Positions 3,342 to 64,000 of a stretch of 64,000 bases of DNA are shown piece after piece (within the stretch, counting starts at the first letter, position 1; each line of letters starts with the position of its first letter). The position numbers were made by a program, and so were the translations under genes. The notes below the pieces were generated by a model. It saw nothing but the letters and a program-made list of their open reading frames with translations, was not told where the DNA came from and did no database searches. Where the stretch lies: assembly GCA_963797625.1 (NCBI GenBank), contig CAWCQI010000038.1, positions 34,009 to 98,008 on the forward strand, written 5' to 3'. This DNA is from an uncultured Acidobacteriota bacterium (lineage in GTDB: Bacteria > Acidobacteriota > Vicinamibacteria > Vicinamibacterales > 2-12-FULL-66-21).

Positions 3342-3431
3342 GGCTCAAGGCTCAGGGCTCAAGGCTCAAGCAAGATCTTCGAGCGAATGGTCGAAGATCT
3401 TGCTTGAGCCTTGAGCCCTGAGCCCTGAGCC
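3342..3431. repeat. Heptamer-armed inverted repeat (GGCTCAR x4, core, loop, inverse)
   Basis: 41-bp arms 3342-3382 and 3391-3431 with one mismatch; 8-nt loop. Confidence 0.9.
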
Positions 3432-45504: not shown

Positions 45505-47607
45505 CAGCTCCCCGCCTGATCCCCCTGCCCCCGAATCAACCTCACGATGAGCGCCAGGAGGACGAGCACGGCTCCGGTCAGCACGACCCAGAATGTCCTC
45601 GGGGACGCGAAAGACTCGGCTGACGATGGTGTGGCAGTCGCTGCCGGTGCCGCACTGATCTCCGTCGCCATGGCGCCCATGACGCGCGGCGCGAGCAGCG
45701 CGAGATGGTACTGCGGTGGCTGAAGGTCGTCTCGACCGTACGCCAGCCGCGGCAACGACTGACCGGCGTGAAAGAACCTCAGCCGGTACGACGGCAGGAG
45801 CAGGCGCGCCTTCGTCAGCGGCAACGGCGCGTTGTCCCCTTCGTCGACTACGACGAGAATCTCGGTCTCTCGGCATCGTCTCCACGCGCAGCGGCAGCGG
45901 CCGGGCCGGCGTGTGCTCGTCGGCGTGGCGCCAGGTCTCGCCCGCTCTCACGTCGAAGTACGGCTCGCGACGGTTCCGATCCGGTGGCCGATCGATGCCG
46001 ATCCGGACGGTGCGCTGAAACACGCGCGCCGAGGTTTCGACGACGAGCGTCGAGGTCGGCAGGTTCGAATATGGAAGGGTGACGACGTAGACCGAACGCT
46101 GCCGGCTGCCTGGCTGCGACATCAGTTCCTGAGACTGCACAGTTCGACGCAGGCCGGACGGCAAGATCGATGGACAGCGGCTCGTTTCGACGCTCGAGCA
46201 CGTAGGGAATCTGCTGATTGGAGCCGTTCAGCAATCTCACGTCGGCGAACCGCGCGGCCCGGCCCACGAGCTGTGCGCGAGCGCGTGCGCGTCGAGAGGG
46301 AGCGCGAAGAGACCAATAGCGTTGTCCCCGGCTTCGGGAGAGGACTGGAGGGCCCGGCTGTACCGGAACGCGTCCGGATCGAGCACGGCTCCCGCGCTTG
46401 GCGCGAGCCCAGACGGGGAGTTGGCCACTCGGCTGATGCGCGTCGTTCCACCGTCACCCCACTTCGCCTCCGCCACCTTCGTAGAGATCGACCGAGCTGC
46501 GAACGGCTTCGAGATCGTACTGAGGCTTCGGCAGCGTCAGGTCGCCAGCGAGAGCTTTCAGCGCACCCAGCCGGCGCTTCGAAATAGATCCACGGCAGCT
46601 CGGCGAGCACAACGGAGACGGCGCGCAAATCCAGCGGCTCGTTCGCGCCATCGTCGATGGTCAACTCGAGCTCGGTCTCCGTCGGCACGGCAATCGGCAC
46701 GCGGAGCGCCGAGGCGGTAAGCCCATCCCGGACAACCCGCGACAGCATCGCCCGTCCGAGCTCGACGGGCGCGGCTTCGAACCCCGCGAAGCGGGACTCG
46801 CTCACGACCGCCCGGCGATACACGTGCCCGCCGGCGACGCCGAGCCCGACGTCGAGATCAACCGCCACGATTGGGAGCCTGGCGCCGGGCAGCCTGACGC
46901 GATATCGGCTGATTCCCGGTTCGCTCGGACGCCGTTCGATCGACGCGGTCAGCGTGGCCGCAATCGGCGGCGGCGCAATCGAGACGCGCCGCGCGGCGAC
47001 CGCACTGGGATTCGGCACGCGGCCGCTGTTGGCATCGTTCCACGTGACGCGAAGGTATCGATACGGTCCCGGCGTAAAGCCGAGCGCATTCTGCCGAAGC
47101 TGCTCGTCCGGCAAATCGAACAGCGTCCCTTCGGCCACGAGCATCGTCCAGCGCTCGCGATCCCCGCTGCCCTCGAGCGTCAGCCGCTTCAAGTGCGGCG
47201 CTGGCAACCCTTGGACTCGAATCATGTCGACTGGGTTCGCGGCTCCAAGATCGACCTCGAAGCCGCTGCTCTTCTTCGTGGGGGCGACGCTCAGGACGTT
47301 GCCGCCGATCCACTCGCGCTCCGGCGACGGCGCGTGGATCAGCAGGTACGGAACCGGACGTCCGCCCTCGCTGACGAGCCGGAGGTCGGTCAAGCCGTCT
47401 TCCGCAAAGTACCTCTCGCCCCGCTGGAGCACGCGAAACGGCGCGCCGGCCGTTAGGAGTCCGGCGTCGATGGCCAACCGGTAAGGGCCAGGCGCCGGCC
47501 GTCACGACGGGGCGCTCGTAGGTCGACTCTGGCGCCTTTTGCGCGAGGGCGACCAGCGGAAGGATCGACAGCGCGATCGCGGCAACCAGCAGCGGCGCGC
47601 GCTTCAC
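45504..47607 (-). CDS. DUF3999-like secreted protein with C-terminal TM anchor; several frameshifts
   Basis: Signal peptide from GTG 47607 (GTGA overlap with the DUF2339 stop); duplicated DLRL..VPY / DVRL..IPY and IDDGANEPL / DEGDNAPL motifs; PQY.L motif before the TM. Confidence 0.7.
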
Positions 47608-50600
47608 GTCGCGGTCCTCGTCTTGAGGACGAACTTCTGCAGCGCGACTGACACCAGCGCAAGCGAGATGGCGAGGCCGACAAACGACCCCACACGCGCC
47701 AGCCCTTCGAGCGAGCTCAGATCGTAGAGGAAACATTTGAAGGTCGTCACCGCGATGAGCGTCACGGCCGCTACGCGAGCCGATCGATTGCCGAGTGTGA
47801 TCCCGGCAGCCAGTAGTCCCATGCCGAATACCAGCCAGCCGATCGTATATGTCAGATCCTGCGCGACGGTGGCGCCGAACCTGAACATGATCGTCGGTCC
47901 AGTGGCGTAGAAGTCTGCGATTTCGATATTGAGCAGCAGGAACAACAGGACGACGCCGGCGCCCGGGAGGAGCGACGAGACGCGCAGGCTTCCGGCAAGC
48001 CGATCGTTCGTCTTCGACAGGAACCAGCCGGCGACGAACATGGCTGCCGCGCAGAGGACGTAGGCGTAGAGATACCAGTTGAAAATCCGCAGCGAGCCGC
48101 GTGGCTCGTACACCAGCACCTCAGGGTTGAGCGCCAGCCGGACGAACACCGCGCCAAGGAGCGCGACGCCCGAGTAGAAGAGCCCGCGATGGGGAATGCG
48201 CTTGTAGACCCACGCCAGCGCCGCTCCCTCGAGCGCCCAGCCGATCGTGATCCACTGCTGTTTCAGCTGGAGCGGAATCGCGACGGTGACAAACGCGAGC
48301 GCGGCACCGGCCACAAGCGCCAGACGGCCCAAATCGCGCTGCCCTCGAGACTCGAGGCTCAGCAGCGAGCGCAGCATGAGCGCGAGCACCGCTCCCTCGA
48401 TCACCGGGATGGCGCCGATCATCCAGTCGAGCTCGCCCGCCACGAATGCCGCGCGGGCGCCGAAGAACGCCATGGCGCTCGCGAGGACCGCCGCGAGGTA
48501 CGGATCGCGGCTGTCGCGCACGCGGCGGCCAACGACGAACGGATACGCGGCAAACACCGCGTAGAGTGCGGCGGACATCGCCAGAAGCCTCGGCCAGGCG
48601 ATCGTCAGGTCGCCCCTCGCCTGCCATTGGAGAACCGCAACCCACGCGGGCACCACGGCGCCAACCGCGACAAACGGCCACCGGTGTCCCGCGGTGAGCG
48701 CGAGCAGCACGCAGAGATTGACGACGTGCGCCGCCAGCAGAACCGGGAAGGCAGGCATCGTCCCAGCGTCGACAGCAGCGATGAGCGAGAGCTCTCCGAC
48801 AAAGATCGCGGCGCCGGCCGCCCACGCGACTTGCTGGCTGCCGCGGAAACGGCTGGCCAGCGGCTGCCACAGGAGCGCATACCCGCTGACGGCGGCTGCC
48901 GTCAGCACCGCCGTCAGCCCCCACTCAGGCGATCCCGCGCCAGCGCTCCATGCCGTCACGACGGCCGCGGCCGCGATCGTACCGGCCGTGTGCATGGTCG
49001 CGACGCGGCTCCAGAGCGCCGCGGCGCTCGTCGCGAGCGTCATCGCGGCGAGCGCCGCGAACACGGGCCATGGCGGCAGCGACCACGTGCGATCCGTCGC
49101 GAGCAGCAGCAGGAAGAGATGGCCGATGAGCCCGAGGTAGAGTCCGCGGGCGAACGGCGCCTGTGCCGCCGAGCCTTCGCCGCCCACGCTGCGCACCGAC
49201 CACGCGTGGCCGGCGAGCGTGACGAGCGTCAGCCCGACGACGACCATGAGCGATGGCAGGACGCCGACGCTTCCGGCGGCTTGCGACCACCAGGTCATCA
49301 TCAGGAGCCACGACAGGACACTGCCCACCTGGGACACGGTCGGCAGGCGTCCAGCGGCGCTCTCGATGAAGAGTGCGGCATTGGTGATGGCGAGGAGCAG
49401 CGCCAGCGCCCAGAGCGCGGCGGGCGCCACCGATCCGAGCGAGAGAAAGAACAGCAGGCTCAGCCCGAGGAGCAGCACCACGCCGCCACCCCACGCCGGC
49501 TGGAGCGGACGCGACATCCGGCGGGCGACGACCGGAACACCGAGCGACACGAGGCCGAACGCGACGTAGATGGCTACGGCCGTATCCAGGCGCTCGAGCG
49601 TCAGGTGCACGGCCGACCATACGGCCTGCGTGGCAATGGCGAAGAACGCCGCGATGTAGTACAGCGACCCGCTGCCACTCGCCACGGCTCGCCAGGCGAT
49701 CAACACGACGAGCGCCAGCAGCGCCCCCATGAGCGGCCACGGCGCCACAAACGAGGGCTCAATCGCCGCAAGCACCGGGAACGTGGCCAGGAGGAGCGGC
49801 CCGGCATAGTGCGCCCTGGCGGCCGCGCCCGTAAGGGGCCGCGCAAACCATCCCGCGACCAGCGGCGCGACGAGGTAGAAGACAGAGAAGAGCGCGGTGA
49901 AACCGACCGCGGCAAGACCCTGACTGGATGCCCCATGCGTGGCCACAATCCAGGTCCCGATCCACATCGACATCCACGTCGCCATGACGAGCATCGTGGC
50001 AAGGGCGCCGACCGCGTGGAGGAGACCCTGACGACGGGCGATTGCGATCGCCAGGAGCCCGACGTCGATGAGGATCAGGAATCCGAACAGGAGCGACGGA
50101 CGCGCACCGTACGCGGGGACGGCGGCGAGGTAGAGGGCAAACAGCAGCGGCATCGCTGCTGAGACCAACGCCGTTTTCTCGAAGCTCTGACCGTTCGTGT
50201 CGGCGGCGGCGCCGCGCGCACCGCCCGCAAACATGAGCCCCGCAATCGCCGCCAGCGGGAACAGGAGGAAGACGCCCATCGCGAGCGGCACGCTGCTGTG
50301 GTCCAGGAACTTGAGGACCCATCCCCACTGATAGATCGTCGTCAGGATGAGCGTCAGGGCCGTCAGCACCGGCCAGCGCTTCACGCGGGCCACCTGCGCG
50401 AGCCCGACGTTCAGCAGCAGCAGGTACGCGAAGAGCGGGATCGGGCGGTTCTCGCCGGTCGAGAGGAGTGCGGGCGTCGCAAAGCCGCCGAGCAGGCCCA
50501 GCACCGCGATGAAGAGCGATTCGCGCCTGATCGACAGCAGCACCGCGATCAGCGTGACCATCGCGAGCAGGCCAAATGCGACGAGCGACGGAATCAGGTT

Positions 50601-51416
50601 CCAGAGCGCGTGCGCAGCGAAGAAGGTCGCGAAGAGGATCGCGATAGCCGCCGCGTCCATCGCGTTGGCGGTCGCGGGATAGCGGCGCGCCGCCTTCATC
50701 TCGCAGACGACGAGCAGCGCGACTGCGACCAGAATGCCGATCGCGACCCGGACCGGCGGCTGCAGCCACCCGGCCTCGATCGAGTACTTCAGGAAGAACA
50801 CGGCCGCCACGACCAGCGCGATGCCCGCGATCGCCGCGAACAACTTCACGCCGATGAGACTCTCCCAGTCGAACGCCGGCGCGGCCGGCCGGCTGGGCGG
50901 AGTTGGAGGAGGAGGCGGCGGAGCGGGAGGCCGAGGCACCAGTGGAGGCGACGGTGGCCGCGCCGGCGTCGCGGACGGCGCCGGACCGGCCGCCGGTGGA
51001 GCCTGGACGGGCCGTGGCGGCGTCGGCGACGCGGGCGGTGGCGCCGTGGGGAGCGGACGCTCCGCGACGCGCGGTTCTGGAACGGTCAGTGGCGCCGGCG
51101 GCGGGACCGGCCTGTCGGCCGCGGGCGGCACCGGCGCTGGCGGCACGACTCGTGGCGGCACGACTGGCGCTGCGGGCCGTGTTGGCTCAGGCCGCGCGGC
51201 CGCAGCAGGCGGCGAGGCGGGCGACGGAGATGGCGCCGCCTCGCGCGACAGTTGGGTCACGCGCGAGCGAAGCTCGTCGATCTCCTTCTCCTGCGACTCG
51301 ACCACGCGCAGGAGCGTTTCCAGCCGTCGCGCCGTCCTGCGCGCCGACACCCAGGCTGCAATCGGCAGAACGAAGGGGATGACGAGCAGGATCAGCGCGA
51401 AGAAAAGAATCTCCAC
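47604..51416 (-). CDS. DUF2339 family polytopic membrane protein (about 1270 aa)
   Basis: Pro-rich linker, then DWESLIGVKLF..FFLKYSIEAGWL.P.VRV, LGGFATPALLSTG, C-terminal KCFLYDLSSLEGLARVGSF; about 30 hydrophobic segments. Confidence 0.88.
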   Translation of the reverse strand: MEILFFALILLVIPFVLPIAAWVSARRTARRLETLLRVVESQEKEIDELRSRVTQLSREAAPSPSPASPPAAAARPEPTRPAAPVVPPRVVPPAPVPPAADRPVPPPAPLTVPEPRVAERPLPTAPPPASPTPPRPVQAPPAAGPAPSATPARPPSPPLVPRPPAPPPPPPTPPSRPAAPAFDWESLIGVKLFAAIAGIALVVAAVFFLKYSIEAGWLQPPVRVAIGILVAVALLVVCEMKAARRYPATANAMDAAAIAILFATFFAAHALWNLIPSLVAFGLLAMVTLIAVLLSIRRESLFIAVLGLLGGFATPALLSTGENRPIPLFAYLLLLNVGLAQVARVKRWPVLTALTLILTTIYQWGWVLKFLDHSSVPLAMGVFLLFPLAAIAGLMFAGGARGAAADTNGQSFEKTALVSAAMPLLFALYLAAVPAYGARPSLLFGFLILIDVGLLAIAIARRQGLLHAVGALATMLVMATWMSMWIGTWIVATHGASSQGLAAVGFTALFSVFYLVAPLVAGWFARPLTGAAARAHYAGPLLLATFPVLAAIEPSFVAPWPLMGALLALVVLIAWRAVASGSGSLYYIAAFFAIATQAVWSAVHLTLERLDTAVAIYVAFGLVSLGVPVVARRMSRPLQPAWGGGVVLLLGLSLLFFLSLGSVAPAALWALALLLAITNAALFIESAAGRLPTVSQVGSVLSWLLMMTWWSQAAGSVGVLPSLMVVVGLTLVTLAGHAWSVRSVGGEGSAAQAPFARGLYLGLIGHLFLLLLATDRTWSLPPWPVFAALAAMTLATSAAALWSRVATMHTAGTIAAAAVVTAWSAGAGSPEWGLTAVLTAAAVSGYALLWQPLASRFRGSQQVAWAAGAAIFVGELSLIAAVDAGTMPAFPVLLAAHVVNLCVLLALTAGHRWPFVAVGAVVPAWVAVLQWQARGDLTIAWPRLLAMSAALYAVFAAYPFVVGRRVRDSRDPYLAAVLASAMAFFGARAAFVAGELDWMIGAIPVIEGAVLALMLRSLLSLESRGQRDLGRLALVAGAALAFVTVAIPLQLKQQWITIGWALEGAALAWVYKRIPHRGLFYSGVALLGAVFVRLALNPEVLVYEPRGSLRIFNWYLYAYVLCAAAMFVAGWFLSKTNDRLAGSLRVSSLLPGAGVVLLFLLLNIEIADFYATGPTIMFRFGATVAQDLTYTIGWLVFGMGLLAAGITLGNRSARVAAVTLIAVTTFKCFLYDLSSLEGLARVGSFVGLAISLALVSVALQKFVLKTRTAT

Positions 51417-51587
51417 TGTTCCTCGTCCTCGTGCCGGCGGAGCTCCGCCGGGCACCGATTCACTTGTAGCTGGGGTTCACTCATCTTACACGGAGCCACC
51501 GTCGCTGGTAAGCTCTCACTCATCGGACGCCGCAGGCGGCTTGCCGGCCGTGTGAAAAACCGTGAAAAAGAGTGTCAGGTCGTGAGC

Positions 51588-52283: not shown

Positions 52284-52388
52284 CGCGCGAGCGAGCGAAG
52301 CGAGTGAGCCACGCGAACGGAGCGAGCGTGGCGAAGCAGCGAGCGAGAGAGCGTGTAGGGGGGTTCCGCGGGGGCAAAGCCCCCCGGA
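52284..52388. repeat. Purine-biased GCGA-rich intergenic element ending in a GC hairpin (REP/terminator-like)
   Basis: Repeated GCGAGC/GCGAAG units, then GGGGGC-AAA-GCCCCC hairpin after the udk stop. Confidence 0.5.
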
Positions 52389-52418
52389 CAAAAAACGTAG
52401 CATAAAATACCGACATCG

Positions 52419-53283
52419 ATGGCCGCCAAGCCCGGCTTCTTCGACTACATCAAGGCGGCGTTCAACGCGCGGCCGCTCGGCATGTTCGTCGCGCCCAACT
52501 GGATAGGCCTCGGCGCGTTCGGACTCCTGGGCATGATGGAGCCCGGTTTCTGGGTGCTTGGCGCCGGGCTGGAGCTCGGATACCTGCTCGCGCTCGCGAC
52601 CAACGAGCGCTTCCAGCGGCTCGTCGCCGCCGTTCCCCTCGTCGAGGCCACCGCCGATTGGAACCAGCGCATCCAGGCTCTCGTCGGGCGACTCGATGCG
52701 GGCGATCGCCGCATCTACGATCTCTTGTCGCAGCGGTGCCGCTCGATCATCGATCTGCAGCTGCACGGCGCGAGCCCGGCCACCGTGCCCGGTGGTCTCG
52801 AATCTCAAGCCGACGGGCTTGGACGCTTGTCCTGGATGTTCCTGCGTCTGCTCGTGGCGCGGCGCACCATCCAGCAGGTCATTGGTGAATCGGGCGACGG
52901 CGCGGACCTGCGCAAGCGACGTCTCGGCGCTCGAGCGCCAGCAGTCGGACGCGTCGCTGACCGAGGAGCTGCGCCGGAGCCTCGGTGGGCAGCTCGACAT
53001 TCTCAAGCAGCGACTTCTCCAGCGCACCGACGCGGAACGAAAGCTCACCTACATCGACGCCGAGCTCGAACGAATCCAGCAGCAGGTCGAGTTGATCCGC
53101 GAGCAGGCCGCGCTTTCGACCGACCCGGAACTCCTCTCGCAGCGCATCGACGAGATCACGGCGACGCTCGGTACCACCGGCCAGTGGATACGCGATCAGC
53201 AGCAGGTCTACGGCGCGATGGAAGATCTGCTCACCGATCCACCGCCGCTCGCGCCAGACGCGCGCGCGAGGGAGAGTCAGTGA
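52419..53283 (+). CDS. Membrane-anchored coiled-coil protein (about 287 aa); one frameshift near 52920
   Basis: Two N-terminal hydrophobic segments, then heptad-rich helices; ORFs 52419..53438 and 52558..53283 join at LRKR/VSALERQ. Confidence 0.75.
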
Positions 53284-53321
53284 TCACGAGACGCGGATCA
53301 CACGGATCACAGCGACTGTCC

Positions 53322-53407
53322 GAGAGCTTCTCACCGCAGAGGACGCTGAGAACGCAGAGTCCTTATTGGTTTCTCTCTGCGCGCTCCGCGCGTCTCAGCG
53401 GTGAAGC
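53322..53407. repeat. REP-like palindrome with 9-bp periodic arms (copy 3)
   Basis: TCACCGCAGAGGACGCTGAGAACGCAGAG...CTCTGCGCGCTCCGCGCGTCTCAGCGGTGA, preceded by CGCGGATCACACGGATCAC. Confidence 0.75.
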
Positions 53408-53469
53408 GTGCTTTCGTCCAGTCGAATGGCGGTCGTGACGATGACAAGCGCTCGAATATCTGGAGACAA

Positions 53470-55198
53470 ATGACCGACACTAACAACCTCCCGGCCTGGG
53501 CCGCCGAGATGCGCGACCTGTTCAGGTCCGGTTCGGCCGCGCAGTTCCTGCTGCACGGCAGCGTCTTCGATGTCGTGCCACACGGCGGCAAGCTGCTCTC
53601 GGTCCCGGCCTTTCTCGAGCAGGTCATGTTCGCGAGCTACGACGTCGTGCTGCGCTACGACCGCAGCCGCGGCGTACGCGCTACGCGTGGTGGCGAGGAC
53701 TGGGGCGACTGGCTTCAGAACGCGCTCGGGCGCGAAGCCGCGACCCAGACGCTGATGCGCGAACCGGGTTCGGCGCTCGAGCTCATCGATCGGTATCTCC
53801 TGCGCACCCTCAACCTGCAGGCGCTTCCCGGCGGCGCTGGCGGCAAGCCGAAGCGAATCGCCGTGATCATCGAGTTCGCCGAGTTCGTGGTGCCCCGAGG
53901 CGACGCCTTGCAGCTCGGCGGGCCGTTCGCCGCCAATACGGTCAAGGTCCTCGGCTGGGCCAACGACCCCGCCGTCGTCCAATCCAACATCGTCACCGTG
54001 CTCCTCAGCGAGGGGCTGCACGATCTCAACGCGCTCGTCGTCGAGAATCCGCACGCGGCGGCCCTGCATCTCCCACTGCCCAACGAAACCGACATGCTGG
54101 CGTATCTGACCGCGCTTTCGACGACGCAGTTTCCTGATCTGATGGCAAAGTGCGACGTGCCAATCGAGACGCTGGCGGCGCGGTTGACCGGGCTCAGCCG
54201 CGTCGGCGCGCGGACGGCGATCGCGCTGGCGCTGGGGAACGACAAGCGGATTACCTCCGCCTGGCTCGGCCAGATCAAGAAGGAGCTCATCGAACGCGAA
54301 TGTCAGGGGCTGCTCGACTTCGTGGAATCCCCGTTCACGATGGATCACGTCGCCGGCATGGAACCCGTCAAGGCGTGGTTGCGCGAAGACACGGAGCTGC
54401 TGAAGAAGGGAGCGCTGCGGGCGCTGCCGATGGGGTACTTGATCTGCGGGCGGATCGGCACGGGCAAGACCTTTCTCGTCCAATGCTGGGCCGGCGAGCT
54501 CGGGATTCCCTGCGTCGTCTTCAAGAACTTCCGCGATCGCTGGGTCGGTGCGACCGAGTCGAATCTGGAGAAGATTTTCGCGATCCTGCGCGCGCTCGGA
54601 CAGGTCGTGGTGTTTGTCGACGAAGCTGACCAGGCCGCTGGCAAACGCGAAGGCGGGGACGGCGACAGCGGGCTGTCGGGCCGCGTCTACTCCATGCTCG
54701 CCAAGGAGATGTCAGACACCCGCAACCGCGGCCGGATCATCTGGGTCTTTGCGACGTCACGGCCGGACTTGCTCGAGGTCGACCTCAAACGGCAGGGGCG
54801 ACTGGACGTGCACATTCCCCTCTTTCCGCCGGAAACGCCCGCCGAACGCGAAGCGCTGCTCCTCGCGATTGCCAGAAAGCTGAAGTTTCCGCTGGCTGCC
54901 GGGGATCTACCACCGTTTGCCGATGACCTCCGCCTCGGGGGGAACGAGCTGGAGGGTGTCCTCGTCAGAGCATTACGAACCCATGAATTAAGTCCCGAGC
55001 CCAAGCGCCCCGTCAAGGACGTGCTGGCGGAGCTCCTGCGTGAGGTGCGGCCGAACCCGCATACGAGGAAACTGGAGTACATGGACCTCGTGGCGGTGAA
55101 GGAGTGTACAGGACGTGCGCTTTCTTCCGCAGCGGTTCCGTGACCTGACGCCAGAGGAGCTGGAAGAGCGAATCGATGAATTGAGGCGGTTCGTGTAG
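53470..55198 (+). CDS. Classical-clade AAA+ ATPase (about 575 aa) with a degenerate N-terminal domain; frameshift near 55111
   Basis: Walker A GRIGTGKT, pore loop RWVG, Walker B VVFVDEAD, SRH ATSRPDLLEVDLKRQGRLD; GGAG before ATG 53470. Confidence 0.9.
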
Positions 55199-55206
55199 GA
55201 GCGGAC

Positions 55207-55310
55207 GGCTCTAGGCTTCAGGGCTCTAGGCTTTAGCAAGTTCGTCGAAGACGTACTCGAAGGTTTTGCCAAAGCCTAGAGCCTAGAGCCAAGAGCCTGA
55301 GCCCTGAGCC
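55207..55310. repeat. Imperfect inverted repeat with 7-8 bp units (GGCTCTA / TAGAGCC)
   Basis: GGCTCTAGGCTTCAGGGCTCTAGGCTTT ... AAAGCCTAGAGCCTAGAGCCAAGAGCCTGAGCCCTGAGCC. Confidence 0.8.
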
Positions 55311-55318
55311 ATTCAGCC

Positions 55319-55324
55319 TACAAT
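55319..55324 (+). promoter_or_regulatory. Candidate internal -10 box upstream of pspA
   Basis: TACAAT followed by AAGGAG and ATG 55349. Confidence 0.45.
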
Positions 55325-55348
55325 GGCCCCCACAAGGAGACACACACG

Positions 55349-56080
55349 ATGTTTGCTCGCATCGGACGGCTGTTTCGCGGGTTCTTCGGACTGTTCATCA
55401 GCGGCATCGAAGAGGCCAACCCGGAAGCCCTGATGGAGGCGGCGCGGCAGGAGTTCCGGACCAAGATGACGCAGTACAACCTGGCACTCGCCAAGATGGC
55501 TGGCGTCGCCGAGCGACTCAAAGTCCAGGTGAACGGCAAGGCGGTCAAGGCGCAGGACCTCGAGCGCCGTATCCTGGCCAATCACCGCGCGGGCAACATG
55601 GAGCTGGCCGGCTCGCTCGCGCGCGAGCTGCAGGAGCTCAAGGCAGATCTCACCGTCGACTCCAGCGAGCTCAAGGAAACCGAGGAGGCCTATCAGGCCA
55701 ATCTTCGCCAGGCGAAGCTCGCGCAGCGAGAGTTCGAGGACAAGGTGCACCGCCTCGAAAAGCAGCTGTCGCAGGTCAAGATCAAGGAAGCGCAGGCCGA
55801 GGCCGCTTCGGCGCTCTCGAGCGTCGCGTTCAAGGTCGGCGACCTGGGCGATACGATGAAGACCGTCGAAGAGGTGCTGGCGAAGCGCTACGAAGTCTCG
55901 GCTGGCAAGGCGCGCCTCGCCAAGGACATGGTCGACATTGAGGCCGTGACCGAGAAGGAGAACGAGCGCAAGGCGCTCGAGCAGGTCGCCCTCGCGGAGT
56001 TCCTTGCCTCGCAGGGCATTCAAGCGACGCCGGCAACCGAACAGCCGGCGACAACGAAGGAGATCGGACCAGAGCGATGA
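55349..56080 (+). CDS. pspA: PspA/IM30 (Vipp1/ESCRT-III superfamily) protein
   Basis: 243 aa; N-terminal amphipathic helix MFARIGRLFRGFFGLFISGIE, EEANPEAL motif, long coiled-coil hairpin, C-terminal ALAEF helix. Confidence 0.85.
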   Translation: MFARIGRLFRGFFGLFISGIEEANPEALMEAARQEFRTKMTQYNLALAKMAGVAERLKVQVNGKAVKAQDLERRILANHRAGNMELAGSLARELQELKADLTVDSSELKETEEAYQANLRQAKLAQREFEDKVHRLEKQLSQVKIKEAQAEAASALSSVAFKVGDLGDTMKTVEEVLAKRYEVSAGKARLAKDMVDIEAVTEKENERKALEQVALAEFLASQGIQATPATEQPATTKEIGPER

Positions 56081-57732
56081 ACGGCCAGCCCCGCTTCACG
56101 ATCCTCGGCAAGTTGATCTCGATCGTGCTCGTCCTGGGCCTGATCGGCCTGGGGGTCTACATGATCCGGGGTCGATCGGGCAGCGCGCCCGGCGCCCCGG
56201 CCGGGACCGCCGAAGGCACGAGTTCGACTGAAGTGTCGGAGGTCAAAGTCGAAGTCCCCAAACTCTCGCCTCCGGGCGCTTTTCAGTTCAAGGACAACAT
56301 CGTCCCGATCGAGATCAGTGAATACGCCGGCTATGCCGGGCTGATCGCGGCCAACGGCGGGCTGGAACCGACCGAGAACTCGCTGTTCTTCAAGAACCAC
56401 GGGTTCAAGGTCCGATTGACGATCAGCGAGGACGAGTCGTGGTCGGAATTCAACGAAGGCAAGATGGCCGCCTCGGTAACGACGGTCGACGTGCTCGCTG
56501 CCTACGGCAAGCAGCTGCATGCCGTGGTGCCGGCGCAGATTGGGTTCTCGCGCGGCGCCGACGGGATCGTGGTCCGGAGCGACATCAAGCGGATCAACCA
56601 GCTGAAAGGCAAGACGATCGCGACGGCGCAGTTCACCGAGGTTGACTTCTTCATCCGCTACCTCGCGCAGGAAGCAGGTCTGCCCATCAACACGCTGGGG
56701 AGCCTCGACGCGACCCCGCATCCTGACCGGCTGAATATCGTCTACACAGAGGACGGGTTCGGCGCTGGCGATCTCTTTCTCAAGGAGATGAAGTCGGGGA
56801 AGAACCGGCTCGCCGGCTGCGTCACCTGGGAGCCGAAAGTCTCGGAGGTCGTCGACGGCAGCGGCGGCCAGGCGCACGTGCTCGTCACCAACCGCAACCT
56901 GCTCATCATCGCCGACGTGCTGATCGTGCACCGCGGCTTCGCGCAGGAGCAGCCGAAGATCGTCGAGGGGCTGGTGCAGGGCCTGCTCGAGGGTAACCGG
57001 ATGGTGCGCGATCGGCCCGACCAGTACCTCGACGTGATCGGCCGGTCGTTCAAGTGGAGCCGCGACGATACCAAGGGTGAGCTCGCGAACGTCCACCTGT
57101 CGAACCTGCCGGAGAACGTCGCGTTCTTCTCGGGCGCGATCGACGCAGCCGGCAGCTTCGAGAGCATCTACCAGTCGGCAGTGCTCGCCTACGGCAGCGA
57201 TCTCATCAAGGATCCGCCCGACGCGAGCCGGTTCGCCAGCCTGGCGGCGCTGCAAACGATCGAAAAGAGCGGCATCTTCAAGGATCAGAAAGTGGCGATC
57301 GCGCCAATCCGCTCCGGCGGCGGCGCCTCGCTCGAGTCCGATCCGCTCCTCAGCAAGGACATCCGGTTCCTGTTCGAAGCGAACTCAGCGACGCTCGACA
57401 TGTCGAACCAGGAGAACGTCAAGAACCTCGAGGCGATCAAAAAGCTGCTGCAGGTGAGCCCCGGCTCGACATTGCTGCTGCGCGGCCACGTCGACAACGC
57501 CATGGTCGACGAGTTCCGCAAAAAGGGCGGCGAGGCCTACGTCCGTTCGATGGCGCTGCGCGCGATGTCGCTCAGCAAGGACCGGGCCGGCGAGATTCGC
57601 AAACTGCTGGTCGAGAAGTACAGCATCGACGTCAAGCGGATCGAAACCGTCGGCCGCGGCTGGGAAGAGCCGGCCGGACCCAGCTCGGATCAGAATCGCC
57701 GCGTTGAGGTGCAGTGGTTCACGATTGAGTGA
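56077..57732 (+). CDS. Membrane-anchored solute-binding (SsuA/NMT1-like) plus OmpA-like domain fusion
   Basis: N-terminal TM; SRGADGIVV, QLKGKTIA, VTWEP; C-terminal FEANSATL, RGHVDN, LSKDRA, GRGWEEP, NRRVEV; ATGA overlap with pspA. Confidence 0.88.
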   Translation: MNGQPRFTILGKLISIVLVLGLIGLGVYMIRGRSGSAPGAPAGTAEGTSSTEVSEVKVEVPKLSPPGAFQFKDNIVPIEISEYAGYAGLIAANGGLEPTENSLFFKNHGFKVRLTISEDESWSEFNEGKMAASVTTVDVLAAYGKQLHAVVPAQIGFSRGADGIVVRSDIKRINQLKGKTIATAQFTEVDFFIRYLAQEAGLPINTLGSLDATPHPDRLNIVYTEDGFGAGDLFLKEMKSGKNRLAGCVTWEPKVSEVVDGSGGQAHVLVTNRNLLIIADVLIVHRGFAQEQPKIVEGLVQGLLEGNRMVRDRPDQYLDVIGRSFKWSRDDTKGELANVHLSNLPENVAFFSGAIDAAGSFESIYQSAVLAYGSDLIKDPPDASRFASLAALQTIEKSGIFKDQKVAIAPIRSGGGASLESDPLLSKDIRFLFEANSATLDMSNQENVKNLEAIKKLLQVSPGSTLLLRGHVDNAMVDEFRKKGGEAYVRSMALRAMSLSKDRAGEIRKLLVEKYSIDVKRIETVGRGWEEPAGPSSDQNRRVEVQWFTIE

Positions 57733-57739
57733 TGTGATT

Positions 57740-57854
57740 CGGGGCTCAGGGGTCAGGGCTCGGGGCTCAGAAGAGCATTCCGATCCTAGTCGAATGATTG
57801 GGATGAAGCCTGGTCTGATCCCCGATTCCTGGATCCCTGATCCCTGACCCCTGA
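57740..57854. repeat. Degenerate heptamer-armed inverted repeat (GGGCTCR/GGGGTCA versus GATCCCT/GACCCCT)
   Basis: CGGGGCTCAGGGGTCAGGGCTCGGGGCTCAG ... CTGATCCCCGATTCCTGGATCCCTGATCCCTGACCCCTGA. Confidence 0.7.
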
Positions 57855-57871
57855 CGACAACGAGACAATAC

Positions 57872-59344
57872 ATGCCCACTCTCTACACCCAGCTCTATCG
57901 ACGACACGGTAAGCCCGACGGCATCACGCGGCGCGAAATGCTCCAGCGGTCGCTCGGCGCTGCGGCGGCGTTGTTGATGAGCGACGGCCTCATGGCGCTG
58001 CCGCGCGCGGCGGCTGGCCGGGTCGTCGTCATTGGCGGCGGGTTCAGCGGTCTGGCCGCGGCCTACGAGTTGTCGAAGGCCGGGTATGACGTCACCGTCG
58101 CCGAAGCGCGCAACCGCGTCGGCGGGCGCGTCATCAGCTTCTCCGATCTCGTGGCGGGAAAGAACGTCGAGGGCGGCGGCGAGCTGATTGGCTCCAATCA
58201 TCCCGCGTGGGTCGGCTACGCCAAACAGTTCGGGCTCAAGTTCCTCGATGTCAGCGAAGAGGATCTGGAGGCGCCGATCGTGCTCGGCGGGAAGCGCCTG
58301 ACCTCGGACGAATCCGACGCGCTCTGGGAGGAGATGGAGAAGGCGTTCAATACGATCGTCACCGACGCCGCCAAGGTCGACGCCGACGAGCCATGGAAAG
58401 CGGCCAACGCCGAAGCGCTCGACAAGCGAACACTGGCGTCGTGGATCAACGACCTCGGCGCGTCGCCTCTCTGCAAGACCGGCCTGCACACGATGATGAT
58501 GGCCGACAACGGCATGGTCACCCAGTGGCAGAGCTATCTCGGCAACCTCGCGATGGTCAAGGGCGGCGGCCTCGACAAGTACTGGACCGAATCAGAGGTC
58601 TATCGCTGCCAGGGCGGCAACCAGCAACTCGCGCGCAAGTTCGTCGACGCGATCGGCCCCGCAAAGGTGCTGACGCGGACGATCGTTCGCTCCATCGCCG
58701 TCACCGATAGCGGCGTTCGAGTCACGCTCGCCAATGGGAAGGTGCTCGAAGGCGACCATGTCGTGCTGACGGCGCCGCCGCCGGTCTGGAATCGCATCGC
58801 CATCGATCCAGCGCTGCCGACTGGGCTGGTGCCGCAGATGGGCACCAACGTCAAATTCCTGATGGCGGTCAACGGACCTTTCTGGCGGCGCGCTGAGCTC
58901 GGCCCCGAGATGATGACCGACGGTCCGATCTCGGCAACCTGGCACGGCACCGACGGGCAGCGCGGCCCCGGCGAGGCGCTGGTCTGCTTCTCGGGCGGGA
59001 CCGCGGCCGACACCTGCCGCGAGTGGACGCCCACCGCGCGCACGGAGAACTATCTCGCTGAACTGCAGAAGGTCTACAAAGGCATTCGTCCGAGCTTCGT
59101 GCGCGCGCGCTTCATGGACTGGCCGTCCGATCCGTGGGTCAAAGCGTCGTACTCCTTCCCCGCTCCCGGCCAGGTCACGACACAGGGGCCGACGTTCAGG
59201 CAAGGGCTCGGCCGCCTGCACTTTGCCGGTGAGTACACGAGCTACGCCTTCATGGGCTACATGGAAGGCGCGCTCAACTCGGGCGCGGCCGTGGCGCGCC
59301 GGATCGCCGTCAAGGACGGCGTCGTGAAAGGCACCCCTGCGTGA
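57872..59344 (+). CDS. Flavin monoamine oxidase family protein with Tat signal
   Basis: TRREML twin-arginine motif plus hydrophobic stretch; GGGFSGLAAAYEL, EARNRVGGRV, LHFAGEYT..GYMEGALNSG. Confidence 0.9.
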   Translation: MPTLYTQLYRRHGKPDGITRREMLQRSLGAAAALLMSDGLMALPRAAAGRVVVIGGGFSGLAAAYELSKAGYDVTVAEARNRVGGRVISFSDLVAGKNVEGGGELIGSNHPAWVGYAKQFGLKFLDVSEEDLEAPIVLGGKRLTSDESDALWEEMEKAFNTIVTDAAKVDADEPWKAANAEALDKRTLASWINDLGASPLCKTGLHTMMMADNGMVTQWQSYLGNLAMVKGGGLDKYWTESEVYRCQGGNQQLARKFVDAIGPAKVLTRTIVRSIAVTDSGVRVTLANGKVLEGDHVVLTAPPPVWNRIAIDPALPTGLVPQMGTNVKFLMAVNGPFWRRAELGPEMMTDGPISATWHGTDGQRGPGEALVCFSGGTAADTCREWTPTARTENYLAELQKVYKGIRPSFVRARFMDWPSDPWVKASYSFPAPGQVTTQGPTFRQGLGRLHFAGEYTSYAFMGYMEGALNSGAAVARRIAVKDGVVKGTPA

Positions 59345-60114
59345 GCCGCGGCAACACCTGGCTCATCCTCGGCCTGATCGCGCTGATCGTCGTCTTCAAG
59401 GCGGCGCAGCGCGATCCCCAACAGCAGCCGCGATCGGACGAACGAGCGGCGCGGGCCGCGCTCGAGCTCGATGAGGAGCTCAGGCCGGGCAAGACCGTCG
59501 AGCCCAAAGACGGTCTCGCCGCGGCCATCGCCATCGACGTGTCGGGCAGCATGGATGAGAAGGTCGCGGGACGTGATGGACAGAAGGAGCCGAAGATAGA
59601 GATCGCGCGCCGCGCGGCGCTCGATCTCGTCGATCAATTCGTCAGCTACGCGCGCGGTCACCAGGACGAGCCTGTCCTCCTTGGCGTGTACGAGTTCAGC
59701 CGCCGCCGTGGCGAGCCCGACTGCCGGCCCGTCGTCGCGATGGGCCCACCGGATCGCGAACGCGCCGCCGCGGCCATCGCTCGACTCGATGCCGACGGCG
59801 GCACGCCGATCGGGCAGGCCATGATCACCGCCAAGCGCGCGCTCGACGAAACGGGCCTCACTCGCCGCCATCTCCTGGTCGTCACCGATGGTGAGAATAC
59901 TGATGGCGTAGCGCCCGATCGGGTCGCGCTCGCGATCGGCAAGCGGCCCGACGCCGAACGCCCATCGATCTACTTCGTGGCATTCGACATCGAGGCCAAT
60001 CGTTTCAGCCGCGTCCGAGACGCCGGCGGTCTGGTGCTGTCGGCGGCAAATGCCAGCGAGCTGAACACGACCCTCGATGCGCTCCTGAGCGACAAGATTC
60101 TCATCGAGAAGTGA
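59341..60114 (+). CDS. Membrane-anchored vWA domain protein
   Basis: N-terminal TM; MIDAS DVSGSM, GGTPIG, VVTDGEN; GTGA overlap with the oxidase. Confidence 0.9.
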   Translation: MSRGNTWLILGLIALIVVFKAAQRDPQQQPRSDERAARAALELDEELRPGKTVEPKDGLAAAIAIDVSGSMDEKVAGRDGQKEPKIEIARRAALDLVDQFVSYARGHQDEPVLLGVYEFSRRRGEPDCRPVVAMGPPDRERAAAAIARLDADGGTPIGQAMITAKRALDETGLTRRHLLVVTDGENTDGVAPDRVALAIGKRPDAERPSIYFVAFDIEANRFSRVRDAGGLVLSAANASELNTTLDALLSDKILIEK

Positions 60115-60886: not shown

Positions 60887-63800
60887 ATGGCGCGCAAGCT
60901 CGCGCTCATCATCGGGAACAGTCAGTACCGACGACGCGGGCCTCGCTCGGCTTGCCGCGCCGGACGTCGACGTCCGCGCGCTGGCGGAAGTCCTCAGCAC
61001 CCCCGGCATCGGCGCCTTCGACGAAGTCGTTCCCCTCCTGAACGAAGGCCTCGCGACCGTCCGCAGGGCGATCGCGCGATTCTTCGATGCCAAGCATCGC
61101 GACGATCTCCTGATGCTCTATTTCTCCGGCCACGGCGTACGAGACGAGCAGGGCCATCTCTATCTGGCAGTCCGGGACACGGAACGCGCGATCCTCGCCG
61201 GCACGGCCATCGAGGCCTCGTATGTGACGACGCGGATGGATCGCAGCGCATCGAAGCGCCTGGTGCTCGTCCTCGACTGCTGTCACAGTGGCGCGTTCGG
61301 CTATGGCGCCAAGGCGGCACAGGGCGCAACGGTCGGGACGGCCACGGCCTTCGAAGGCACGGGGCGCGGGCGCGTCGTCCTCACCGCGACCGATTCGACA
61401 CAGTACGCGTGGGAAGGCGATCAGGTTCTCGGCGAGGTCGAGAACTCACTGTTTACGCACTACATGATCGAAGGGCTGCGCACCGGGGCCGCCGATCGTG
61501 ACGAAGACGGGCTGATCACGATCGACGAGCTCTACGACTACGTCTACGAACACGTCCTCAACGACACGCCGAAACAGACACCTGGCAAGTGGGCGTTCGG
61601 ACAGCAGGGCGAGATCGTCATCGCGCACAACGCCGCCGCGAGCCGGACAAAGCTCCCGCCCGAAATCGAGGAGGCGGTGCGCAGCACGCTGCCAAGCGTC
61701 CGCCTGGAGGCGGTCCGAGAGCTCGACATTATCCTTCGCGGGCGACATGCGGGACGCTCGAACGCGGCCCGGGAGGTGCTGAAGCGGCTCGCGGAGGACG
61801 ACAGCCGCCGAGTGGCGGCGGCAGCGGTTGAGATGCTGAAGGCCTTCGAGCTCGGCGGAAGGCCGGTGCAGCCCGAGACGATCGCTCGCGAAATAGAAAT
61901 CGAGAAGAAGAAAGAGGTCGAACGCGGAGAAACGGCGCGTGTCGAGGCGGCGCAGGTCAAAGCGGCGCTCGAAGCGGCGCGCGTCGAGGCGGCGCGGATC
62001 GAGGCAGCGCGTGTCGAAGCGGAACGGGTCGAAGCGGCGCGGGTCGAAGCGGCGCGCGTCGAGGCAGCGCGGGTCGAAGCGGCGCGGGTCGAAGCGGCGC
62101 GGGTCGAGGCGGAGCGGATCGAAGCGGCGCGGGTCGAAGCGGCGCGAGTCGAGGCGGCGCGCGTCGAGGCGGCGCGTGTCGAGGCTGAGCGCGTACAGGC
62201 GGAGCGCGCCGCGCGAGCGGCGGCAGTCGCGGAGCAGCTGGTCGCGGCCGAGGCTGCGCTGACCCGCGGCGCGTTGGACGATGTAAGGGAACGACTCGAC
62301 AAGGCGCTCGAGATTGAACCGCAGCACGCGGGCGCGCTCAAACTTGTGGCGACGCTCCAGCAGCGGATTGAGGAACGAACTCGACTCGAAGAAGCCGAGC
62401 GCCGGATCCGCGAGCTTCGTCAGAAGATCGGAACGCTCATCGCGCGCGCCAACGCCACCGATTCGGACGCCGAGGCAATCGCGCTGCTTGATGAGGCGCT
62501 CGGGCTCGATCCGGAGCACGCCGAAGTCAAGGAACTACTCGAGGAACGGCACCGGCTGCGCGCCGAGGCCGAGGCCGCAGAGCGACGGGCACGCAGCATC
62601 GCCACGGTTCAAGAACGAATCGCCCGACACCTCGAACGTGGCGAGCTCGAGGACGCGGAACATGCGCTCGCCAGCGCAGACGCGCTGGGCGCGCCAGCCG
62701 AGGTCTTTGCGCCGCTCCGCGAGCGTCTCGCGCAACTCCACGACAAGCGCCGCCGCGACGCGGAGGAAGCGATCCGCCTCAAGGCCGAGGCCGAGAAGCG
62801 GGCGCGGGCCGACGAGATCGCGCAGCATCTCGAATCGGCGCGCAAGGCCATCGGCCAGCAGCGATTCGACGAGGCGCTCGAGACGCTTCGTCAGGCGTCC
62901 GCCCTCGACGCCAAGGCCCCTGGCATATCGGAGCTCGTTTCAAGCGCCGAAGCCGGCAAGGCGGCGCTCGAAGCCGAGGCCAAGAAGCGTCAGGAAATCG
63001 ACAACCATCTGAACGAGGCGTCTCGGCACCTGACGAAAGGTCACCTGACCAAGGCGATCGTCATCACCGACGTCCTTCTCGGGCTGGATCCCAATCACCC
63101 GGCTGCCAAGCTCCTGCATGAGCAGATCCAGAAGGCGATCGAGGGGCAGAAGGAGGCCGAGCGGAAGGCGGCCCAGGAACGGGAGCGGCAACGGCAGATC
63201 GAAGACATGATCGCCACGGCCGAGGCGGCTCCGACCCACGACACCGCGATTGAAATCCTCAACGACGTCCTCAGGCGGGATCCCGGCAACGCCAAAGCGG
63301 GGCGTTTGCTGGACAAGCGGCAGGCGGATCTCGACGCGCTCAAAGCCGAGCAGCGGCGCAGCGAGATCGCGGCGGCGCAGCAGACGATCGAAGAACACTT
63401 GACGCGCAACGAGCTCGACCTCGCGGGCACCGAGCTCGATGCGGCCGAAGGTCGCTTCCAGTCGACGGCAGAGTTCCGCGCGCTGCGCGAGCGGCTGCAA
63501 GGCGTGCGTCGGAAGGAAGAACTCGACCGACTGGCGCGCGCGGCCGTCGAGCAGGCTCAGGAAGATTTCGCGCGCGGCAACCATCAGCGCGCCATCGCGG
63601 ATCTGAGCAAGTTCAAGCCCGCTCACGACAGGGTATCGGCAGCCATTCGGGCGCTTGAAGGCACAGGCCGAGGAAATCCGGCGCGTCCGAGAGGAACAGG
63701 AAGCGCGAGCCAGGATCGAAGCCGAACGCGCTGCCCGCGAGGAGCGCGTGGCGCGCTTGATGGCCGCGGCGCAGGCGGCCGTCAATCAGCAGCGGTTCCA

Positions 63801-64000
63801 GGAGGCATTGGAAGCGGTCGAGCAACTGCGGGCGCTCGCGCCTGGCGTGGCGGGGTTGGAGCAACTCGCGACGGCCGCCGCGGACGGGCTCAAAGCGCAG
63901 CGCGCCGCGGAAGAGGCGCGTCGACAGGCAGAAATCGCGCGTCAGGAAATGGACAAGACGCTGGCTCGAGCCGCCAAGCGGCTACGCCGGCGCGACTACA
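60887..64000 (+). CDS. Caspase-family (C14) protease with EF-hand-like loop, helical repeat stalk and TPR-like repeats; over 1000 aa, runs off the window; frameshifts near 60929 and 63660
   Basis: Manual translation: KLALIIGNSQY, LYFSGHG (His codon 61131), LVLDCCHSGAF (Cys codons 61278-61283), SLFTHYMIEGLRTGAADRDEDGLITIDELYDYV, QTP; later ALEIEPQH, ALGLDPEH, LLGLDPNH, VLRRDPGN. Confidence 0.9.
61968..62207 (+). repeat. Coding 15-bp tandem repeat, 16 units encoding (V/I/L)EA(A/E)R
   Basis: 240 bp of GTCGARGCGGCGCGN variants in frame within the caspase gene. Confidence 0.92.

Follow-up and report, generated by a model that had tools for sequence, protein, structure and literature searches.

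How the polymers of PspA and Vipp1, the bacterial counterparts of ESCRT-III, are disassembled and recycled is the question raised by a cluster of six co-oriented genes from an uncultured Acidobacteriota bacterium, in which a divergent PspA is encoded beside a tandem AAA ATPase. The six genes, here called g1 to g6, fill positions 52419-60114 on the + strand of a stretch of 64,000 nucleotides (referred to as the window). They encode, in this order, a protein with a hydrophobic hairpin and a coiled coil (g1), the ATPase (g2), the PspA (g3), a solute-binding protein (SBP) domain joined to an OmpA-like domain (g4, SBP-OmpA), an amine oxidase (g5) and a vWA protein (g6). Pfam and NCBIfam name five of the six (g2-g6), leaving g1 without a family. 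A first-pass annotation of the window, which was correct in placing all six genes on the same strand, had read them as a membrane-remodelling system of the ESCRT-III/Vps4 kind. A 2025 review (PMC7619361) states that a Vps4-like ATPase is apparently absent in bacteria, and Makarova et al. 2024 likewise give such an ATPase as absent from bacteria (here and below, statements on published papers refer to the portions of text that were available).

The ESCRT-III/Vps4-like reading is nevertheless reasonable and was proposed independently by Ravi et al. 2024 (mSystems 9:e00847-23, PMC11237479), who report that PspA occurs occasionally with a protein of two AAA+ domains, the N-terminal copy of which is inactive, in operons that also encode an ABC (ATP-binding cassette) ATPase, a permease, a PBPb-OmpA protein and a partner with a transmembrane segment. 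In the available text, the transmembrane partner is called a Snf7 homolog, the ABC genes are treated as optional, ATP-dependent membrane remodelling akin to that by Snf7 and Vps4 is proposed, and a link to solute transport is pointed to. The window shares with these operons the PspA, the two-AAA ATPase with an inactive N-terminal copy and the PBPb-OmpA protein, and its g1, with a hydrophobic hairpin, may correspond to their partner with a transmembrane segment; in contrast to them, it lacks the ABC ATPase and permease and adds an oxidase with a twin-arginine translocation (Tat) signal and a predicted periplasmic vWA protein, a term that does not occur in the available main text of Ravi et al. 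2024. The module in the window is thus a member of the class described computationally in that study, and the earlier view of the set as unrecognised was overstated. Its identity as a PspA-AAA gene set is, in our judgement, very probable. The class is experimentally uncharacterised, since no experimental work on the module was found in the available literature, including Popp et al. 2022, the reviews and Makarova et al. 2024; nor was a paper found that names both Ycf46 and Vipp1.

Conservation and variation of the gene set

To follow the neighbourhood across genomes, relatives of the ATPase were collected in a scan with one genome per species, from which the best 80 of 138 stretches (68-99% identity) were analyzed. 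These loci are labelled Acidobacteriota, Gemmatimonadota and Planctomycetota, with a single one labelled Burkholderiales. Counts take only loci with enough flanking sequence, and variants were counted in the 51 loci whose downstream flank reaches 7 kb or more. Of 73 evaluable loci, 72 have g1 upstream of the ATPase gene in the same orientation (the miss is L063); PspA lies downstream in all 64, and SBP-OmpA follows downstream in 54 of 55 (the miss is L038). The gene set is far from a chance arrangement by these neighbourhood counts. The two remaining genes behave differently: the amine oxidase is present in 23 of the 51 loci, all of them labelled Acidobacteriota, and vWA in 34. Co-occurrence therefore holds for g1, the ATPase, PspA and SBP-OmpA, is partial for vWA and fails for the oxidase, which the first-pass annotation had counted as a general component and which belongs to one acidobacterial lineage.

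The nearest relatives sort into three architectures. Variant A, that of the window, carries both oxidase and vWA and comprises the 23 oxidase-containing loci. Variant B (11 of 51 loci, plus 2 without a vWA match) has an extra gene between those of the ATPase and PspA, a diverged SBP-OmpA (~29% identity), vWA but no oxidase, and a fused ABC permease-ATPase upstream. Variant C consists of the four core genes alone and is represented by 14 Gemmatimonadota loci, in none of which vWA was detected, together with L038. The extra gene of variant B occurs in 17 loci (for example L064:11750-12412 and L079:11788-12531); its product, a soluble protein of ~220-247 residues, has an amphipathic helix at the N-terminus and a coiled coil at the C-terminus and matches no Pfam family.

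A reverse search starting from g1 reached more distant loci. In a sample of the same phylum, the g1 profile matched in 35 of 401 genomes and 30 of 228 genera, and in 21 of the 27 loci that could be evaluated the ATPase gene follows g1 immediately, with 30-73% identity. Twelve of the 18 longer distant loci show a fourth architecture, variant D, with the order PspA, SBP-OmpA, ABC permease-ATPase, g1, ATPase; its PspA, ATPase and SBP-OmpA have only ~26-40%, ~50% and ~27% identity, respectively, to those of the window. In all 12 complete variant D loci the pairs PspA plus SBP-OmpA and g1 plus ATPase are adjacent, and in many loci the stop of g1 abuts the start of the ATPase gene. The other six comprise L119 without an ATPase match, L122 at a contig end, and L124, L125, L127 and L128, which are partial or rearranged. 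In L125 (G383:C39) a vWA gene occupies the usual place of PspA, upstream of SBP-OmpA, ABC, g1 and ATPase, and L127 (G040:C83) is a minimal trio of PspA, g1 and ATPase with neither SBP-OmpA nor ABC. As the linkage persists through rearrangement and divergence, there is good evidence at the level of sequence that the core proteins work together.

A phylogenetic tree of the ATPase (52 rows, midpoint root for drawing only) places variants A, B and C in one clade (100/100), with the Planctomycetota members of variant B as a basal grade, variant A as a single nested group (92/62) and the Gemmatimonadota in two places. The comparison suggests that the module was transferred between phyla and that the architecture in the window is derived, having lost the ABC and extra genes and gained the oxidase. 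Since the fused ABC permease-ATPase is found in most of the other variants, its absence here would be derived in this lineage. In the genome to which the window belongs (93.6% complete) no full-length ortholog of the ABC protein was found, only its nucleotide-binding domain aligning.

The ATPase, PspA and their partners

The ATPase g2 matches Pfam AAA (PF00004, E 1e-22) and no further family at E <= 0.01. Its C-terminal domain carries Walker A (GRIGTGKT) and Walker B (VFVDEAD) motifs, the pore loop RWVG and the arginines of the second region of homology, so that the intact pore loop and arginine finger reported at first pass were found again. The N-terminal 280 residues contain no Walker A motif; in the structural model this part folds as an AAA+ domain (Z 10-12.5), scoring 12.5 against Vps4; Ycf2-FtsHi, RFC, Trip13 and the i-AAA protease, among others, tie with it to within 1-2 Z units. 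The model as a whole is mediocre (predicted local distance difference test, pLDDT, of 65, with the active domain poorly modelled), and the full chain aligns in Foldseek to the tandem AAA proteins Pex1/6, p97, Cdc48 and Rix7 (E ~1e-9). Among solved structures, its sequence comes closest to the D2 domains of VAT, Cdc48 and p97 (E 1e-37 to 1e-32); the best 60 sequence matches in the PDB do not include Vps4. The NCBIfam models score 66.7 bits for CDC48, 63.1 for FtsH, 46.8 for PAN and 31.9 for CdvC, the last with a cut-off of 650.

The protein shares with Cdc48/p97/VAT, Pex1/Pex6 and NSF the tandem AAA arrangement with one ring catalytically dead, for which D1 of Pex6 and D2 of NSF are precedents. 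Unlike type II AAA proteins of the Cdc48/p97/VAT kind, it lacks the N-terminal double-psi barrel, is much shorter (575 residues) and has a dedicated membrane partner in g1 as well as its linkage to PspA. The module resembles archaeal and eukaryotic ESCRT-III with Vps4 or CdvC in that a polymer protein of the superfamily is encoded beside an AAA protein of the classical clade with an aromatic pore loop. In contrast to Vps4 and CdvC, g2 has neither MIT nor Vps4_C, its N-terminus being a degenerate AAA domain, and the polymer protein g3 comes from the PspA branch rather than the Snf7 branch of ESCRT-III. Judged by these features g2 is not a member of the Vps4 family, yet it could do a Vps4-like job. 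It differs from activators of the PspF type, the architecture of which is given by Ravi et al. 2024 in the available text, as no DNA-binding domain was matched in g2 with Pfam.

The assignment of g3 to the PspA family relies on several comparisons. The Pfam model PspA_IM30 matches with E 6e-7 and 29.7 bits, below the gathering cut-off of 33.9, while a profile of 30 orthologs matches cyanobacterial Vipp1 over residues 1-173, including alpha0 (E 3.7e-6), and the profile of canonical PspA from Acidobacteriota with 89.6% probability in hhalign; the source databases name the orthologs 'phage shock protein A' or 'PspA/IM30 family protein'. In the 6.74-Mb genome g3 is the sole PspA_IM30 match, and neither Snf7 nor PspC is matched anywhere in it (PspB, PspF and LiaRS were not searched for). 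PspA proteins of the system score 30-48 bits against PspA_IM30 in the phylum sample and canonical ones 80-173, and by their sequences the former are a distinct subfamily. The N-terminus of g3 is a strongly amphipathic helix, and the C-terminus consists of a helix of the pattern ALxxQALxEFxAxxG, a variable linker and the ending K[ED][IM]GP. Helix and ending are kept in 17 of 18 PspAs of the system down to ~36% identity, the miss being frameshifted, and the C-terminal pattern is also present in 28 of 30 alignment members; among 30 canonical PspAs, not one has the exact K[ED][IM]GP pattern. ESCRT-III proteins likewise end, beyond a variable linker, in a conserved tail, which there takes the form of the MIT-interacting motifs (MIM).

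For g1, an alignment of 36 orthologs shows an amphipathic N-terminal helix, a glycine-rich hydrophobic hairpin in which Pro, Asn, Trp and Glu residues are invariant, and a long helical domain, the C-terminal third of which is highly conserved. The hairpin may equally be a re-entrant wedge or two membrane-spanning segments; judging from the basic residues on either side of it, the helical domain would lie in the cytoplasm. The family is large, with 1498 representative clusters at E <= 0.001 among 1.84 billion, and the orthologs are annotated as 'hypothetical protein' in their sources. Searches for distant kinship gave little: the g1 profile finds only chance coiled coils in the PDB and scores 0.3-0.5% against both PspA profiles in hhalign, and the AlphaFold2 model, which is all-helical (pLDDT 81), has no Foldseek match at E <= 0.001 and a best VIA-align Z of 9.1 to designed helical bundles, with no ESCRT-III protein among the fold matches. 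Homology of g1 to ESCRT-III was thus not detected in these comparisons. As Snf7 kinship was not detected for g1, the Snf7-homologous partner in the available text of Ravi et al. 2024 may be another protein. An Atlas feature search placed g1 nearest to Rv2743c/PspM among the clusters bearing a Pfam family (score 0.87), which serves as a lead only; the Rv2743c family was listed by HMMER/Pfam neither for the first g1 member nor among 25 of the 94 families listed for 36 members. The canonical Psp systems (E. coli PspFABC, M. tuberculosis ClgR-PspA-PspM-PspN and B. subtilis LiaIH) likewise combine PspA as the effector with a small membrane protein; the module differs from them in that the genome has no PspC match and the cluster contains no recognisable regulator.

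The proteins g4, g5 and g6 are predicted from their sequences to be extracytoplasmic. One strong N-terminal transmembrane segment in g4 precedes an SBP domain of the SsuA/NMT1/phosphonate/OpuAC type and a C-terminal OmpA-like domain of the peptidoglycan-binding kind. The oxidase g5 (Pfam Amino_oxidase, E 3e-66) is similar to monoamine, putrescine and cyclohexylamine oxidases of bacteria (E 1e-37 to 1e-34), and the twin-arginine motif [ST]RR[ED]M is present in 11 of 11 orthologs; it is encoded by a lineage-specific accessory gene and appears to be exported by Tat. A general link of the system to amine or polyamine metabolism was rejected, as aminotransferase and DAO neighbors occur in 3 loci only. 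The vWA domain of g6 belongs to Pfam VWA_2 and follows an N-terminal signal anchor, in place of which several orthologs have lipobox-like signals. The protein is predicted to be periplasmic and is therefore unlikely to be an adaptor of a cytoplasmic AAA ATPase, the role in which it had first been cast. A MoxR-vWA pair was discarded as well: besides the predicted periplasmic location of vWA, g2 matches only PF00004 and classical AAA families, which we take, from the family definition, to set it apart from MoxR.

Layout of the locus, frameshifts and intergenic repeats

The positions of the genes and of two palindromic repeats are collected in Table 1. The stop of g3 and the start of g4 share four nucleotides (ATGA, 56077-56080), as do those of g5 and g6 (GTGA, 59341-59344), in agreement with the overlaps noted at first pass; g4 and g5 are separated by a spacer of 140 nt that contains a palindrome.

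Table 1. Genes of the cluster and palindromic repeats between them (window coordinates).
Feature	Position	Strand	Description
g1	52419..53283	+	~287 residues; amphipathic helix, Gly-rich hydrophobic hairpin (residues ~20-62), helical/coiled-coil domain
g2	53470..55198	+	Tandem AAA ATPase; N-terminal domain without Walker A, C-terminal domain with complete motifs
REP-like palindrome, g2-g3 spacer	55207..55297		RNA fold z = -4.7
g3	55349..56080	+	Divergent PspA/Vipp1-family protein
g4	56077..57732	+	Transmembrane anchor, NMT1/SsuA-like SBP domain, OmpA-like domain
Second palindromic repeat, g4-g5 spacer	57740..57860		Read from sequence
g5	57872..59344	+	Flavin amine oxidase with twin-arginine signal
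g6	59341..60114	+	vWA protein with DxSxS metal-ion-dependent adhesion site (MIDAS) motif and N-terminal signal anchor

The gene order of the first-pass annotation stands, whereas its models of g1 and of the end of the ATPase gene do not, owing to two frameshifts. In g1, one extra base at 52919/52920 is absent in five of five close relatives. The open reading frame (ORF) as read (52419-53438, 339 residues) is a frameshift chimera, Arg-rich and featureless beyond about residue 166, while a well-formed C-terminal half lies in the other frame and stops at 53283, giving the length of the relatives' product, 287 residues. In g2, an extra A at 55110, absent in three of three relatives, puts the last 29 conserved residues, a helix, out of frame; the stop as read is at 55143 and moves to 55196-55198 once the A is removed. 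As an independent check, contigs from four publicly available sequencing runs of soil and rhizosphere (X1, X4, X5 and the RNA run X15) were compared over 52400-56100. The extra base at 52919 is missing from all covering contigs (1 in X4, 2 in X15), and so is that at 55110 (2 in X1, 1 in X4, 2 in X5), including a 227-base contig that matches the window fully save for the single gap at 55110. Because every covering independent contig lacks the extra bases, both insertions are most likely assembly errors, and we take g1 and g2 as most likely intact in nature, real lesions in the strain being the lesser possibility. The contigs of the RNA run cover 29 of 30 bins (the uncovered bin being 55128-55251), which is not proof of transcription. 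The two insertions suggest an indel-prone assembly in which other ORFs of the window may be broken likewise; ORFs 60887-61501 and 61113-63998, for example, which are in different frames, overlap around a caspase domain.

The palindrome type of the g2-g3 spacer recurs at 3342-3417 of the window, and a role of this hairpin as a system-specific regulator was therefore ruled out. All three palindromes (55207-55297, 57740-57860 and 3342-3417) are built from heptad-like units, GGCTCAG and GGCTCTA; in relatives, changes in one arm are matched in the other. The three look like a family of REP-like (repetitive extragenic palindromic) intergenic repeats, two of which bracket the pair of pspA and g4. A scan for promoters and terminators gave no signal above shuffles.

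The cluster is flanked by ORFs for a PRK-family kinase, DUF2339, DUF3999 and a caspase-TPR protein. No ABC transporter lies near the six genes among the flanking ORFs of the window, which agrees with the first-pass statement that neither an ABC transporter nor PspC is encoded nearby; PspF and LiaRS, which it had also given as absent, were not searched for. The PRK kinase was rejected as a part of the system, as synteny upstream is limited to 9 close relatives. Between its gene and g1 lies a GCGA-rich low-complexity tract with a G-rich hairpin (52285-52350). On the minus strand, 46122-51455 holds the gene for a DUF2339 membrane protein of 1283 residues and then a DUF3999 gene with a weak F5/8-type-C match, which may form a two-gene membrane unit. 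Downstream, ORF 61113-63998 combines a caspase domain (Peptidase_C14) with a TPR repeat and continues past the end of the window. A defence system was likewise dismissed, PADLOC having returned just generic AAA (IetA) and flavoenzyme similarity.

A candidate mechanism and its alternatives

Taken together, the domain composition and gene linkage are consistent with the following mechanism. On the inner side of the cytoplasmic membrane, g1 would hold or regulate a hexamer of the ATPase, and PspA would polymerise at the same place by means of its amphipathic helix alpha0; g1 might also recruit PspA, as the first-pass annotation proposed. The ATPase would spend ATP on unfolding and releasing subunits of PspA, or of g1, and thereby turn over the polymer, with the C-terminal helix and tail of PspA serving as the handle; its role would be that of Vps4 for ESCRT-III, carried out with an unrelated substrate-recognition domain. 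Through SBP-OmpA the site would be connected with peptidoglycan as well as with a ligand in the periplasm; in most relatives this protein would serve the fused ABC permease-ATPase. The lineage of the window would have lost the ABC gene and the small extra gene, and a Tat-exported amine oxidase would have been inserted before the periplasmic vWA. We assign this Vps4-like mechanism, with g1 as the positioning factor, PspA or g1 as the unfolded substrate and SBP-OmpA as the coupling to the wall, a probability of roughly one half.

A number of observations weigh against it. PspA is only a putative substrate of the ATPase, and the predicted complex of ATPase and PspA (score 0.25, mark 0.32) carries no weight either way. 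The constant neighbor of the ATPase is g1 rather than PspA, so the g1 protein may be the substrate, or the ATPase may have no partner besides it. The AAA domain of g2 scores nearer to the D2 domains of Cdc48 and VAT and to FtsH than to CdvC and Vps4, no MIT domain is found in it with Pfam at E <= 0.01, and its Sensor-1 residue is Ser, where classical AAA proteins usually have Asn. The hydrophobicity of g1 is borderline for a transmembrane segment (median Kyte-Doolittle maximum 1.64 over 19 residues). The tail of PspA is not unique to the AAA-linked members, because canonical PspAs carry a related KKMGI: the ending LKKKMGI/KKMGI closes 12-13 of 30 canonical PspAs of Acidobacteriota (loci L141-L154). 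Finally, the 80 loci of the scan are nearest relatives and not independent samples. Considered on its own, the LKKKMGI tail may be a general C-terminal motif of PspA related to K[ED][IM]GP.

Part of this evidence would fit an arrangement in which g1 and the ATPase form an extractor for the quality control of membrane proteins, akin to a split FtsH or Msp1 without a protease, and PspA merely seals the lesions. The two genes are the tightest pair, with abutting stop and start in many loci, the FtsH model scores near the CDC48 model (63.1 against 66.7 bits), and binding of PspA by the ATPase is only inferred. We nevertheless consider the extractor rather unlikely, as no protease domain or partner appears in any variant looked at, and the company of PspA in all 64 evaluable loci and in the rearranged variant is tighter than a back-up role needs. 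Solute uptake or sensing as the primary function, with PspA, g1 and the ATPase assembling, regulating or protecting a trans-envelope transporter, would account for the fused ABC permease-ATPase in variants B and D, for the transporter-type SBP domain and for the Tat-exported oxidase that follows in 23 loci, and the available text of Ravi et al. 2024 also points to solute transport. Variants A and C, however, keep the system without an ABC gene, no full-length ABC ortholog was found in this 93.6%-complete genome, and the oxidase is confined to one lineage, with aminotransferase or DAO neighbors as rare as noted above; this makes a primary transport function unlikely.

Decay of the system in this genome, with real frameshifts and with g1 and the ATPase gene as pseudogenes, would explain why two single-base insertions are found in two adjacent genes. 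It appears very unlikely given that the covering contigs from four independent runs are all without the extra bases, one of them being otherwise identical to the window, that several related long-contig assemblies have broken matches in neighboring genes, as is typical of indel-prone assemblies, and that signs of decay other than the indels are lacking, the window having 97-99% protein identity to L002 and L003. The original picture of a six-gene trans-envelope machine, with vWA as the AAA adaptor and the oxidase as an integral part, draws on the common orientation of all six genes, the 4-nt overlap of oxidase and vWA genes and the retention of vWA in variants A and B. We regard it as extremely improbable: the signal anchor or lipoprotein-like signals of vWA direct it to the periplasm, away from the cytoplasmic ATPase, no vWA was detected in any of the 14 loci of Gemmatimonadota, the oxidase is restricted to variant A, and the palindrome-bearing spacer parts g4 from g5.

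Beyond the available account of Ravi et al. 2024, our analysis adds four architectural variants, two invariant gene pairs, the size of the g1 family, the likely periplasmic vWA and oxidase, the C-terminal motif of PspA and evidence of exchange between phyla. Only tentatively do we go one step further than the Vps4-like mechanism and propose that some bacteria independently built a counterpart of ESCRT-III and Vps4, in which a tandem AAA unfoldase, tethered by g1 as its adaptor, recognises the C-terminal helix and tail of a specialised PspA and turns its polymer over in a nucleotide-dependent way at a wall-anchored site of the envelope. If true, such an independent counterpart would overturn the statement of recent reviews that bacteria have no ATPase of this kind. 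With four core genes that are strongly conserved and widespread in soil bacteria, the module is a compact candidate for how polymers of PspA and Vipp1 may be disassembled and recycled.

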